From a virus (taxonomy: Duplodnaviria > Caudoviricetes): a stretch of DNA of 40,720 bases. The stretch is taken from the IMG/VR virus record IMGVR_UViG_3300044513_002776, positions 1 through 40,720 of that record. One strand, 5' to 3'. Position 1 is the first letter of the stretch. Each line of letters starts with the position of its first letter. This document shows, in pieces, positions 629 through 21,500 of this stretch. The translations under genes were made by a program, and so were the position numbers. Under the pieces are notes generated by a model. It was not told the origin of the DNA. It did not search any database and worked only from the letters and a program-made list of their open reading frames with translations.

Positions 629-1157
629 AAACACAGATATTTGTAACATCTTTGGTGGTAGTGTAAATTCTGCACATTGTTCTCCATATGTTCCAGGTGA
701 GGGTGTAACCTACGATTATGTGGAATACCCTGAGAATGAATCTCGTAATGGTAATTACAACATTCCTGGTAGGGATGATAATGCTGTAATGTATGGTTAT
801 TCAGAGGAATTTGTTAATACAGGAAGTGTTGGAGGGTCGGGTACAGCAGGTCAACCAACCTCAGCAAACTGTGGAAAACTTTCTCGGAGTTTGTGTTCTA
901 ATGCATTAGGTTCAGGAACAGTGTATCAGGATTATATTCCTGCATCATTATCTTTCGATTACAACTACTCTGACACCTTCTTTGCATACCTGTACGACAC
1001 GTCAGACGACGCTGGGAACGTCGGTACGCCCTGTTACTATATCATCACTAGGGAAACTAGCGCAGACAGCACTTCAACGAACCCAGAGAGCACTCCTACG
1101 ACGGATGTACAAACAGAATCCTCAAGAATGTGTTCCTTGCACAGCATTTTACTGTGA
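612..1157 (+). CDS. N-terminal part of a Cys-rich putative virion structural protein (probably continues into 982-3111 via a +1 frameshift near 1120-1126)
   Basis: Plausible G/S/T/Y/C-rich structural composition up to ...TDVQTESS; overlaps the downstream ORF in another frame. Confidence 0.6.
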   Translation: MGCKTRNTDICNIFGGSVNSAHCSPYVPGEGVTYDYVEYPENESRNGNYNIPGRDDNAVMYGYSEEFVNTGSVGGSGTAGQPTSANCGKLSRSLCSNALGSGTVYQDYIPASLSFDYNYSDTFFAYLYDTSDDAGNVGTPCYYIITRETSADSTSTNPESTPTTDVQTESSRMCSLHSILL

Positions 1158-3111
1158 TACCGCTTCCACAAATCTTAGATATACTGTTGAAGAAGATTTA
1201 ACGGGCGACCCCGACTGTCCACATCCCACGTTATTTGGATTTGGATCCACTAGCAACAAGCTTGCTTTTACTTATGATGAATTATCTACAGAGTTACCTA
1301 ATGGTGTAAATGACCTTTCTTTGTCATATGATGGGGTAACATACATTGATTCTTGGGATGGAAACCTAGAAGTTGGTATATCATACACTTCTTCTCAAAA
1401 TCCTTGGCAAACTGGTGACGAAGGACTTGATGACTTTGTTATTTACGATTTAAATTCTAGTCAATCAGTTACTGGTTTTCGTATAAAAGTGCGAATTCGA
1501 CCCATTTTTGATGATACAACTACTCCTGTTGTTTTTTCTGGCACTGAATGGATTGTTGAAGAGATTTTATCAAGCGGTACAGGGTATACTATTGGTGATG
1601 TTTTCTTATTGGAGTACGAACATACGCATCCAGACAACTCTACAACGAATTTGACAGTTAATTTGAAGATTGATGGTACTGGACCAGTGTCTGCTGTTGT
1701 ATCATCGAGCGGATTTGACATCTTAAGGACTGGAGATACCATTAATGGGCATGTAATTACACATACTTTTCACACCAATATTGATAGTTTTCCGTATCAT
1801 GTCCTTTACTTGGATGGTGATGGTGATGATTTTGTCAAAGAGACTCAATATACCTCTAATCGCAACCATGTCATTACCGCAAAAGCGGGTTTTGGCATTG
1901 TGGACCGCGCAATTTTGGTTGGACAATACCAATTTTTGAACAAATCTATCCAATATGCGATTGGTTCTATTAATAAAGACGCTCCAGACATCTATAACAC
2001 GCTAATTCAACCAAATATTGACCTACAAATCACAAATGGTAGTGTTTCTGGATTCACAATTGTCGATGGAGGCAGCGGTTGGGACCAATTGGGGAGGATT
2101 CCTGAGTTATCAGTCACTTCTCCTACAATTGAAAGCGGAAAAACTGCAAAAGTTAAAGGAACTTTCCTTGGTGGAGAGTTAATTGACTTAGCAATTCTTG
2201 ACCCAGGCAGCGGTTATGCGGAAAATGTTGGTAATACGGTGTATGTGAGTAATGTTCAACTGAATTCCAATGTTAGAGTTGCTAATGATGGGTATAGTCA
2301 AGATGCAATTGATGGATTTATTGCGGATATCAAGTCTATTCCTAAGACTGATGATGCATCTGTTACTCAAGATGAGATTAACTCATTTGAAGATACGTAC
2401 AATTCTCAAAATAAATTCACTGATATCTCAGGAACAGTGCCTACAATTGAAATGAGAAAAGACCCGAAACGTAACAGAACGGGGCAAATAGGTCAATCTC
2501 AGTATTCTAGAAAATCAGTTGACCCCATATTTGAGGTTATGGAGCGTCAAGATAACTTAGACTATTTGAATGATGCACCACTTCCAAAAAATATAAAGAA
2601 GACGATTACCGATGAGAGAGAAAGAGATGTAGAAAAACGCAAGCAAGACCTTGAAGATATTATTCAAGACCAAATTCCAGAGTTTGTTAACAATCAAGAA
2701 ACTTATATTGAGACTGTACAGGGGTCATTTGCAAATTTACCAAGGGCATCTACTTATACTAAGTACCATCTTAGGCAATATCGAGCGGATCCTGCTAAGG
2801 AAACCTCAATAAATATTACGTTATCATGTTCTCCCGTTGATGAGGGATGCCTTCATTTTGCATGTGCTCCCCCAGCAACTCCAGCTACTGCGACTGGTTC
2901 ATCTACAACAGATGATGAAGAAGTCGATCCAGAAACCGAACTTCCGTATCAGACTACGACTAATACCACCACAGTTGCTACAGTCTCTCCTTTACTTGGT
3001 CCTGGTTGTCAATCTTGGAGTGTATCGGGAAGTATGAAAATGTATCACAATTTGAGTAGAGCTGCTCAAACTGTTTCTTTAGCAACCGAAAGATACGGAA
3101 ACCCTTACTAA
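982..3111 (+). CDS. C-terminal part of a putative virion structural protein (credible coding from about 1105/1126)
   Basis: Long ORF with SGTGY/DGGSGW/DPGSGY repeats like those in gp7. The TTG start at 982 and the first ~45 codons look spurious; an in-frame ATG lies at 1105. Confidence 0.75.
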   Translation: MHTCTTRQTTLGTSVRPVTISSLGKLAQTALQRTQRALLRRMYKQNPQECVPCTAFYCDTASTNLRYTVEEDLTGDPDCPHPTLFGFGSTSNKLAFTYDELSTELPNGVNDLSLSYDGVTYIDSWDGNLEVGISYTSSQNPWQTGDEGLDDFVIYDLNSSQSVTGFRIKVRIRPIFDDTTTPVVFSGTEWIVEEILSSGTGYTIGDVFLLEYEHTHPDNSTTNLTVNLKIDGTGPVSAVVSSSGFDILRTGDTINGHVITHTFHTNIDSFPYHVLYLDGDGDDFVKETQYTSNRNHVITAKAGFGIVDRAILVGQYQFLNKSIQYAIGSINKDAPDIYNTLIQPNIDLQITNGSVSGFTIVDGGSGWDQLGRIPELSVTSPTIESGKTAKVKGTFLGGELIDLAILDPGSGYAENVGNTVYVSNVQLNSNVRVANDGYSQDAIDGFIADIKSIPKTDDASVTQDEINSFEDTYNSQNKFTDISGTVPTIEMRKDPKRNRTGQIGQSQYSRKSVDPIFEVMERQDNLDYLNDAPLPKNIKKTITDERERDVEKRKQDLEDIIQDQIPEFVNNQETYIETVQGSFANLPRASTYTKYHLRQYRADPAKETSINITLSCSPVDEGCLHFACAPPATPATATGSSTTDDEEVDPETELPYQTTTNTTTVATVSPLLGPGCQSWSVSGSMKMYHNLSRAAQTVSLATERYGNPY

Positions 3112-18500: not shown

Positions 18501-21500
18501 AGGAACTGGATTCTTCGCTAGTGGTCAAATTCTCAAGACCCGAGATACAAAGGCAGAAGTCATTGGTTATAACCAAGCACGCAAGACAATCTATCTTGGT
18601 AAGATTGCTAGAATCCTTAACTCTGGTCAGGATTATCATACAGCAACTTTCAACAATAGTGCTCAGTTAGATACTGCTCAGAAGAAGTTTGGTCCTTCTT
18701 CATTATTACTGGATGATGCTACTACTGATTATCTTTCCATTCCAACTTCTACCGAATTTGGTTTTGGCACAGGTGCATTTACTGTTGAGTGTTGGATTCG
18801 CCCAGATGATGTTTCTGCTGGTGATAGACATATCTTTGATATGAGAGATGGTGGTGGTGATGCAAATGCTGGTAGACTTTATATTGCCACAGACCAAGTA
18901 CGCTTTAATATTGGCGGTAGTGACGTTGTTACATCTGGCGCAACAACGCTTTCTGCAGATACTTGGTATCACATTGCTATCACTAGAAGTGGTACTGATT
19001 TGAAGTTATTTGTTGATGGTTCTGAAGCTGGAAGCACCACTAACAGTACCGATTTAGGTTCCACAAAACGTCTCTTTATTGGTTCTAATTTTAGTGCTGC
19101 AAATACCTTCTCTGGTCATATTGATGAGTTTAGGGTTTCTAACACTGGTCGCTATAGCGCAGCGTTTACACCACGCAACGGTATCTTCCAAGGTGACAGC
19201 AACACCAAACTTCTTTTCCACTTCGATGGTTCTGATGGACAGGTATACGACCAAGATTGGTCTGGTGGAGAGTCCCTCACAAATGGTGAAGATTTCCATA
19301 ATGATTCAATCTTAGCAACCTCTAGACTTGCTGGTGCTCCTGTCGGATTTACTGGTAACTCTCACAGAGTTTATAATGCAACTACGTCAATTGCTTTGAA
19401 TAAGGACTTTATCGCTAAAGAAGTTGTATATCTGCTTCTTCAGCAATATCCTTCCCTTGTCATTCCTGGTGGTAATGTCAACTGTGAAGACGACATTCGT
19501 GATGTCTTAGACCAGATTATTGAAGACCTTAAGAATGGTTCTAACAGCCATATGTGGGATGCTGCAGCAATCTATGTTGATAGAACTCAGAATCCTGTCA
19601 CTCTCAATCATATTGAGACTGAAGTTGCTGAGACTATCTGGGCATATAATAAAGTTGATGAAATGCTTCAGTACATCATCAACAACGTTACTTGGACAGT
19701 TCAAGGTGACCATGGACTGACTCAGACTCTTAATACTGAGGCATCTAACATCTATGAAGGCGGTTCTCCAAGTCTCAGCAATTGCGCTGACGTTTACACC
19801 ACAATCAATAACCTGATTGATATCCTGACAGATACTCTTTCTGAAGCAGATACTCCTAGTGCAACTCCTGATGGTGACCATCTTGCAACTGTAACTAAGG
19901 TTGAACCTGCATTTGAGTTTGTTGGTGGAACAGTTGATGCATTCTATGAGGTTCCATTCACTGTAGATTATCATGATGGAAACACTGATGTAATCTATAC
20001 AAATCAAATTGATACTGATTCTAGAAATAGATTCTATGATGCAGCAAACTTGATTCTCAAGAATCGTGCTGTCATTATCGATAAAGCATCTGCAGACCTC
20101 ATCAACAGATATCCTGACCTTGCTCTGGATATGCCCAGAAACGAATCTGGAAATGGTGATGGAACTCTTCGCTGTAAGACTGATTTGGGTCTTATTTTAG
20201 ATGAGATTGCAGAAGATATTCGGAACGGTGGTAACATCAATACTGTTGGTGCTGCTAAGTTCTATCTTGGCACAAATGATGTTCTGCTCCATATTCGTTT
20301 ACAGGTATGGCAGTCTGTTTATGCACATAATCGCCTCGGTTTCTATATGAAACAGGCAATCAATGGTGATTTGGACTATAATAATACTACAAATATCATT
20401 GTTGGCGATTGGGGTATTACCAATGACCCAGGCGGATGTGCTGATGTACAAGCAGCAATTGATACTTTGATTGATACTCTTAATGATATTATTGCACCAA
20501 CTGATAATGATTATGCAATTGCTGCAGATAGACTTTACTTCAATAGAGATTATATTCGTGATGAAATCTTCGGGTTGATTAATGACGAACTGACATATAC
20601 TCTCAATAATATTAATTTCACCGCTTTTGTTTATAATAGTGAGTTGGATATTGAAGATTTAATTATTGCTATTATTTCCGACCTTCAAACTGGTGGTAAT
20701 AATAGTAGCGTTGCTGAGATGGAAAACTATTTGACCTCTGCTCTTAATTTGACGACTATCGATAATGTTCTTCCAGCAGCAATCTTTGCATTAGAGAAGT
20801 TAAAAGAACTTGGTGAGTATGCAATCAATAATGCTCTTTATAATAGAGGAACTACCGTTCCTGCTGGTCTCTATTCTGCTGTTCATGCAACTCAAACTGC
20901 ATATCAAGATAATGAGTCCCCAGTAACGATTGCAAACCCATACGCAAGATTTGGTGTACTTGTTGACTCTCTGAAGGGAATAATTTCTCCTGGTGGCGAT
21001 GAGGCAAGAAATGCCGCAAAACAAATCCAATATAATGAAAATTACTATAAGGATGAACTGGAGACAATCGTTAATGCTCAATTTGGTTCTGGTTCTTGGG
21101 ATTATGATGAATTTGTTGGAACAATCGTTGATAATATTGTCCATGACTTGATTATTACTGACACCACAGATACAACTACTGCATATTCAATTAGTATTGA
21201 AACCGTTACAGATTCCTTTATTGTTGGTGAGACTGTAACTTCTAGTGGTGGTGGAACTGCAGTTGTCTTTGAATATGATGAAGATTCTTCTAAGTTATAT
21301 GTTGGTCCTTTTACTGGAACTGCTTGGATTGCTGGTGATACGTTAACTGGTGGAGAATCTGGTGCTACTGCAACTATTTCTGGCGGTGGAACTGGTTCTG
21401 TATTCTTTGATGGTACTGATGACTATTTGAGAATTCCCTCCGTTAACTCGTCGTTTGCCTTTGGTACTGGTGCGATTACTTTCGAGTGCTGGTTTAGACC

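Follow-up and report, generated by a model that had tools for sequence, protein, structure and literature searches.

The closest described relatives of the element studied here are the beta subunits of phycoerythrin and phycocyanin (CpeB and CpcB; Pfam family PF00502), the bilin-binding globins found outside the antenna (BBAG-1, BBAG-2 and BBAG-3), and the photoglobins or photocobilins. The element is a set of tandem domains inside a predicted 6158-residue (aa) baseplate protein encoded in a 40,720-nucleotide stretch of tailed-virus DNA (Duplodnaviria; Caudoviricetes), which is the whole of IMG/VR record IMGVR_UViG_3300044513_002776 and is referred to below as the window. The record is a fragment, 23% complete, and the genome content considered for this phage is that of the fragment.

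In phycobiliproteins, Arg86, Asp87 and Asp39 help to hold the chromophores. The phage domains share with CpeB and CpcB the globin core from residue 31-33 onward, a long G-H loop, Cys84, Asp87 and Cys155, the match to Asp39 being confined to the second domain. They differ from these subunits in having no X and Y helices, in the absence of Arg86 in the window, in their tandem arrangement within a predicted 6158-aa virion protein, and in a likeness that amounts to 15-16% identity with the phycoerythrin beta chain 5aqd_M and stays below the Pfam cut-off. BBAG-1/2/3 are likewise bilin-binding-type globins outside the antenna, with a CXRD motif in BBAG-1 and BBAG-3 and with linked heme oxygenase and bilin reductase genes (PMC10151467). 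CXRD is the motif of phycobiliproteins and of BBAG-1 and BBAG-3, and these two BBAGs bind bilins without lyases (PMC10151467); the BBAGs are stand-alone bacterial proteins, whereas the domains studied here are internal phage repeats, and the part available mentions phages for their bilin reductases only. Photoglobins and photocobilins (PDB 8j2w and 8j2y; PMC8717448, PMC10979010) share a phycocyanin-like globin without X and Y helices that serves as a module of larger proteins, and they match our models with Z scores of 10.4-12.9. They are cytoplasmic signalling proteins with B12-binding domains, and their scores are well below that of phycoerythrin beta; no B12-binding or signalling Pfam domain was found in the 6158-aa protein or in the other large open reading frames (ORFs) scanned.

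No description of the phage domain was found in the literature searched, most subscription journals and supplements lying beyond that search. The available parts of PMC8717448 (where the word phage occurs 0 times), PMC10151467, PMC11480375, PMC10452541, PMC13198022, PMC9910659, PMC9916406 and 10.1101/2024.12.13.628456 do not mention it. The same literature yielded no described counterpart of a virion with a covalent chromophore in its attachment apparatus.

Tandem phycobiliprotein-fold domains in a predicted baseplate protein

Iterated searches revealed three complete repeats of about 160 residues each in the 6158-aa protein (Table 1). An earlier note on this DNA, made from the sequence alone, had proposed two tandem domains of phycobiliprotein or globin fold. 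The sequences that it quoted and its four Cys codons are correct and in frame, the two domains are true repeats of each other, and the fold is backed by the profile search, two structure models and the CpcB alignment. The count of two did not stand, since a third complete repeat follows directly; the absence of N-terminal X and Y helices and the size of the family had also been overlooked.

Table 1. Features of the 6158-aa protein and its repeats, with partial copies from fibre proteins at other loci in the last row (positions in the window unless another locus is named)
Feature	Position	Strand	Basis
gp7-like baseplate wedge subunit, predicted virion structural protein, 6158 aa	6535..25011	+	ORF, PHROG 701, PF23786
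Repeat 1, aa 4278-4436, phycobiliprotein-fold domain	19366..19842	+	profile E 2.2e-45; model
Repeat 1 main bilin-site motif Cys4317-Glu-Asp-Asp4320 (Cys84 and Asp87 equivalents)	19483..19494	+	CpcB Cys82 alignment
Cys4417, beta-155 site equivalent, repeat 1	19783..19785	+	aligned with CpcB Cys153
Repeat 2, aa 4499-4655, phycobiliprotein-fold domain	20029..20499	+	profile E 1.2e-51; model
Repeat 2 main bilin-site motif Cys4547-Lys-Thr-Asp4550	20173..20184	+	joint alignment to CpcB
Cys4635, beta-155 site equivalent, repeat 2	20437..20439	+	joint alignment to CpcB Cys153
Repeat 3, aa 4659-4819, beyond the earlier note's coordinates, Cys-less here	20509..20991	+	profile E 2.4e-35
Possible degenerate fourth repeat, weak, split by ~540 aa	21007..22959	+	no Cys at either site
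Tandem helix A-B copies	L043:4447-4689, L092:4167-4274, G003 145.0-145.8 kb		

PF00502 matched the repeat stretch with an E value of 3.3e-4 and 21.1 bits, under the gathering cut-off of 22.2, and several orthologues of the protein have a precomputed match to this family in databases. Single repeats compared with the PDB retrieved phycobiliproteins or their derivatives in first place, weakly (E 0.017-0.04). A profile of 34 phage repeats matched 100 PDB sequences at E<=1 (best E 1.3e-4), and the top 60 of these were all phycobiliproteins or derived from them, the match being restricted to the first 60 profile positions, Cys84 motif included. Alignment to Acaryochloris CpcB and CpcA scored 14.9 and 9.9 bits, respectively, against a maximum of 7.3 for shuffled sequences (1000 shuffles each); hhalign to the single CpcB and CpcA sequences was weak (probability 38% and 65%), and a search of the ESM Atlas returned nothing useful, the best score being 0.79 and the clusters without names.

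AlphaFold2 models of repeat 1 (pLDDT 91.6) and repeat 2 (pLDDT 83.5) were compared with 48,161 representative chains. For both, the best match was 5aqd_M, with Z scores of 16.1 (143 aligned residues) and 17.1 (145 aligned residues) and an rmsd of 2.1 Å in each case, followed in the ranking by allophycocyanins and ApcE and then by photocobilins and sensor globins; heme globins and sensor globins scored Z 10-12. Foldseek placed repeat 2 at a TM score of ~0.7 to phycoerythrin and phycocyanin beta chains. Taken together, PF00502, the phage-only profile, the shuffle test and the structure models of repeats 1 and 2 place the likeness to phycobiliproteins beyond chance.

Superposition of the models, made from the repeats alone, begins at residue 31-33 of 5aqd_M, indicating that the X and Y helices, which build the antenna trimers, are absent from the repeats. 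Formation of an alpha-beta dimer or trimer is therefore not expected. Being internal to a 6158-aa ORF, the domains are not the stand-alone subunits of PF00502 either. As modelled, the domain resembles the phycobiliprotein beta core yet is not a light-harvesting subunit, since it is repeated inside a larger protein and has neither X/Y helices nor Arg86. Its most fitting place is among the bilin-binding globins, as a phage family not described before, the comparison with BBAGs being made by description.

The window corresponds to the baseplate module of a T4-like cyanophage, with genes for gp25, gp6, the 6158-aa protein, a gp9-like protein and gp8. Between the gp6 and gp9/gp8 genes, the ORF matches PHROG 701 along its length and the baseplate wedge family PF23786 (E 2.2e-6), and it also contains YHYH and LamG domains. 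Its orthologue in cyanophage S-CAM8 is annotated as baseplate wedge initiator. Judged from this annotation of relatives, the protein presumably belongs to the virion. Its likeness to T4 gp7 and cyanophage PHROG 701 proteins lies in gene position and the PF23786 match; it differs from them by the YHYH, LamG and phycobiliprotein-fold inserts and is about six times longer than T4 gp7.

Candidate bilin-site residues in the repeats

When repeats 1 and 2 are aligned jointly with CpcB, their first Cys coincides with Cys82 and their second with Cys153, and Asp4502 of repeat 2 coincides with Asp39. The profile and the models concur, which supports the equivalence of both Cys to the 84 and 155 bilin sites that had been proposed by eye. 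Arg86 is replaced by Asp in repeat 1 (C-E-D-D) and by Thr in repeat 2 (C-K-T-D), where Arg and Lys stand on either side of Cys4547. This replacement and a Cys-Cys spacing longer than usual had been entered as caveats in the earlier note, and both hold; the alignment accounts for the spacing by a longer G-H loop. Cys4317, Cys4417, Cys4547 and Cys4635 are conserved in 117, 119, 120 and 118 of 120 orthologues, respectively, Cys4417 even in those where long inserts precede it. Repeat 3 has kept the Asp and has no Cys in this phage; among 118 orthologous repeats, at least 69 display Cys-x-x-Asp, for the most part as C-x-R-D.

Residue coupling across a large phage family

When the three repeats served as tblastn queries, 366 of 50,697 phage records matched, and each of these is named Synechococcus, Prochlorococcus, Cyanophage or Marine virus. 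For the neighbouring gp8, 494 records matched, among them phages of Sinorhizobium, Pelagibacter, Methylophilales and others. A profile of the repeats found matches in 1,597 protein clusters (50% identity), and the 149 new proteins taken from the best 150 of these clusters, here called the distant set, contained 1511 repeats, with up to 33 in one protein. Ten distant-set proteins were scanned and match tail-fibre and virion PHROGs; at locus L113, as read from the ORFs, the repeat gene comes after capsid and neck genes. A pattern scan of GTDB with one repeat produced 390 candidates, none confirmed as a cellular relative, and a plasmid scan detected no cellular relative, both scans being insensitive.

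Cys84 is present in 1457 of the 1511 distant repeats, and these retain Asp87 without exception (1457/1457) and Arg86 in 1394 cases. At 70% redundancy (175 of 714 aligned matches), Asp87 occurs in 149/149 Cys-bearing repeats and in 7/26 Cys-less repeats. Co-loss was evaluated with independent pairs on a tree of 221 rows built without these columns. In 10 independent pairs differing in Cys84, Asp87 followed in 7.0 and opposed in 0 (median p 0.016), Arg86 followed in 7.7, and four control columns gave no such signal; Cys84 was lost independently about 15 times. Among full repeats, Asp39 is found in 75 of 76 with Cys155 and in 30 of 278 without it. Coevolution of Cys155 and Asp39 was not significant in the kinship-corrected independent-pairs test (median p 0.625).

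In several fibre proteins, full repeats are preceded by short tandem copies of just the initial 35 residues of the domain, helices A-B (Table 1). In jumbo phages, a protein of ~287 aa with a single repeat comes after the multi-repeat gene (L113:24530-25390, L100:18330-19187). In S-PM2 (locus L092; AJ630128.1, 168.5-173.4 kb), tRNA features are annotated within the 3779-aa CDS S-PM2p218, atop intact repeats, and probably reflect misplaced record coordinates.

Co-occurrence of repeats and bilin-supply genes

The phage genes ho1/hemO, pebS, pcyA, pcyX and cpeT occur in many repeat-bearing phages and could supply and attach the pigment. Purified phage CpeT reportedly binds phycoerythrobilin, with loading of host phycoerythrin not demonstrated. 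Twelve cultured genomes, picked by hand and not phylogenetically independent, fall into two groups. Repeats and cpeT are both present in P-HM1, P-HM2, S-PM2, S-CAM8, S-CAM7 and ACG-2014f, and neither was detected in P-SSM2, P-SSP7, S-CRM01, Melnitz-3, Mosig and HTVC008M (6/6 versus 0/6; Fisher p 0.002, kinship ignored). The repeat matches of ACG-2014f and S-CAM7 are partial, and cpeT of ACG-2014f is supported by annotation and tblastn, the Pfam search having given no match. S-CAM8, the best cultured match of the window's repeat region, has cpeT and no reductase. The cpeT gene lies immediately upstream of a repeat gene in genome G005 and 1.4 kb upstream in S-PM2.

Four jumbo phages without psbA (G011, G012, G034 and G055) combine repeats with adjacent genes for heme oxygenase and PcyA-like bilin reductase, and in G011 a gene of the CpeT family is present as well. 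G011 is closely related to G012, G034 is 40% complete, and in all four the bilin genes share the genome with the repeats and are not clustered with them. Among 26 records picked by GroEL, three have repeats, all with the reductase, two of the three being the G011 phage; four fragments have the reductase only and 19 have neither, including all five that are near complete (p 0.013). Two generalizations were considered and ruled out: that repeats always need cpeT (G004, G012, G054 and G055 do without it) and that bilin reductases of phages serve these repeats in every case (Mosig and P-SSM2 encode a reductase but no repeats).

In G012 and G011, hemO and the reductase gene overlap by a few bases beside groES-groEL (L144:905-2079 and L145:1492-2633, respectively). 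Unlike cyanophage CpeT, the CpeT-family protein of G011 starts with a hydrophobic segment that resembles a signal peptide (L241:2678-3364; G011:C1 ~218.2-218.9 kb, minus strand). In Pelagibacter phage Mosig, which infects SAR11, annotated ferrochelatase, heme oxygenase and pcyA genes lie directly upstream of the neck genes (L213:1303-5630), and no repeats were detected.

Phage bilin genes have been read as supporting the host's antennae, its phytochromes or BBAGs, with no virion acceptor proposed in the available parts of PMC10452541 and PMC11480375. What phage cpeT and the hemO-pcyA/X cassettes are for, in phages whose hosts have no phycobilisomes, is described as open (PMC11480375).

Proposed pigment binding, light and adsorption

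The co-loss of site residues and the co-occurrence with genes for bilin synthesis and a lyase support covalent attachment indirectly, and we consider it likely, from these sequence comparisons, that the domains bind bilin covalently in the virion. During folding of the protein in the infected cell, a bilin made by the host or the phage would be joined by a thioether to Cys84, and Asp87 would hold it at that site. Repeats 1 and 2 would accept a second bilin at the Cys155 site. T-type lyases act on Cys155 (PMC2327270), and CpeT, the phage lyase of this type, would be the expected enzyme for it. Light taken up by the bilin may then change the baseplate or the fibres, allowing attachment by day and not at night.

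Adsorption data for cultured phages are compatible with this last step. Neither P-HM1 nor P-HM2 adsorbs in darkness, and the light-dependent adsorption of S-PM2 is independent of host photosynthesis (PMC6628666). Dark adsorption does occur in P-SSM2, at a reduced rate, and light makes no difference to P-SSP7 (PMC6628666, PMC7112961). Profile matches number 6 in P-HM1, 6 in P-HM2 and 13 in S-PM2, and none were detected in P-SSP7 and P-SSM2. Thus, the light-dependent adsorbers all carry repeats and the dark adsorbers have none detected, which fits light sensing by the repeats. Light-dependent cyanophage adsorption had been ascribed to host receptors or tail fibres that are sensitive to light, without these being identified (PMC6628666). 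A virion pigmented at its attachment apparatus, in which absorbed light permits adsorption, is in our view the best explanation, held tentatively; if the pigment is present, light gating of adsorption is slightly favoured. Extended to many aquatic tailed phages, the proposal becomes more speculative: these would build coloured, light-sensing virions, with bilin-bearing arrays in baseplate and fibres gating adsorption, and cpeT, together with hemO and the bilin reductase in psbA-less phages, would serve the phage particle rather than the host antenna.

Several findings weigh against covalent pigment and light gating. In the window, Asn4281 occupies the beta-Asp39 position in repeat 1, and Arg86 is missing from repeats 1 and 2, a state that is fixed in their classes (CEDD in 109/122, CKTD in 107/122), so that pigment binding by these two repeats is less certain than by the family. 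Seven other Cys of the 6158-aa protein are equally conserved, and conservation of the four Cys therefore says little by itself. Across the family, Asp87 is retained in 37 of the 54 Cys-less repeats of the distant set, the Cys155-Asp39 association does not survive correction for kinship, and the co-loss result is weakened by matches having been picked with a profile that favours these very residues; Cys84, Arg86 and Asp87 are also adjacent, and local turnover could alter all of them together. As regards gene content, the contrast between cultured phages comes from related genomes chosen by hand, and 14 fragmentary records were uninformative, with 3 loci outside the bilin-gene search. G054 (93% complete, 21 repeats, no psbA) had no heme oxygenase, reductase or cpeT detected, and a protein search for the reductase in G054, G013, G028, G029 and G031 was empty, with no positive control. 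G013 has repeats without such genes, though it covers just 169 kb of a 271-kb type; G004, G012, G034 and G055 have repeats without cpeT; and Mosig and P-SSM2 have a bilin reductase without repeats. The link to phenotype comes from 5 phages only, too few for a rule, and among these adsorption of P-SSM2 is still enhanced by light, and the BBAG holoproteins tested are photoinert (PMC10151467).

That the domains bind bilin without switching, the pigment acting as a light screen, antioxidant, energy sink or fold stabiliser, is somewhat unlikely, although all of the evidence for bilin binding applies to it equally. Most phycobiliprotein chromophores do not photoisomerise, and arrays that reach 33 copies in one protein resemble a bulk pigment more than a switch. 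The low fluorescence of the photoinert BBAG holoproteins points the same way (PMC10151467). However, the proteins that contain the copies belong to baseplate and fibres, distant from the packaged DNA, and the adsorption pattern of the five phages fits sensing. The decay rates of P-HM2 and P-SSP7, which are alike in white light and in the dark (PMC7112961), also count against this reading.

Less probable still is that the domains carry no pigment and are remnants of a phycobiliprotein gene once captured, retained as helical spacers or host-binding modules. Such remnants would explain why repeat 3 of the window lost both Cys and was nevertheless kept, why Cys84 has been lost repeatedly, how repeats 1 and 2 tolerate the absence of Arg86 and, in most orthologues, long inserts that break repeat 1, and why G054 has repeats without detectable bilin genes. 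They leave an unpaired Cys with an invariant Asp at +3 hard to explain, and this invariance favours a ligand; Asp87 decays once the Cys is gone, and bilin synthesis genes accompany the repeats in the four psbA-less phages.

That the Cys stiffen the virion by forming disulfides or a metal site with Asp is very improbable, the evidence against it bearing mainly on disulfides within a repeat and less on any that join repeats or subunits. Virions meet oxidising seawater, and repeats 1 and 2 hold two Cys in nearly all orthologues, while Cys155 without Cys84 is found in 1 of 354 full repeats of the family. However, Cys84 stands without Cys155 in 263 of the 354, and an obligatory internal disulfide is therefore excluded for the family; a bond between the two Cys, named in the earlier note as an outcome contrary to its proposal, is thus unlikely as an obligatory feature. 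No further metal ligands are conserved in the repeats, and the models superpose over their full length on the beta chain 5aqd_M, in which the two sites hold separate bilins. Chance resemblance of a generic helical bundle is barely credible. Single-sequence PDB matches are weak, the sequence likeness spans the first 60 profile positions only and heme and sensor globins also reach Z 10-12, but phycobiliproteins come first by sequence profile and in both structure searches, where Z is 16-17, 143-145 residues align and the two Cys are in register. A non-globin bundle, the other contrary outcome named in the earlier note, is excluded.

If virion pigmentation and light gating hold, the light-dependent adsorption of S-PM2, P-HM1 and P-HM2 would be explained and viral bilin genes would gain a viral substrate. 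Two standing questions, the light dependence of adsorption and the purpose of cpeT and hemO-pcyA/X, become testable with cultured phages. As monomeric units that can be repeated, the domains might in addition find use as modules that fluoresce or respond to light.

Other features of the window

Beyond repeat 3, the weak match to a possible degenerate fourth repeat consists of an N-terminal half (aa 4825-4886, E 0.14-0.19) and a C-terminal half (aa 5419-5475, E 7.1e-5), and the ~540-aa interruption between them includes a LamG-like region. In most orthologues, the long inserts of repeat 1 precede its last helix. Upstream of the 6158-aa ORF, a PHROG 719 baseplate gene is divided between two overlapping frames (612-1157 and 982-3111, plus strand), which cover profile positions 1-176 and 174-830, respectively, indicating either a sequencing error or a genuine frameshift.

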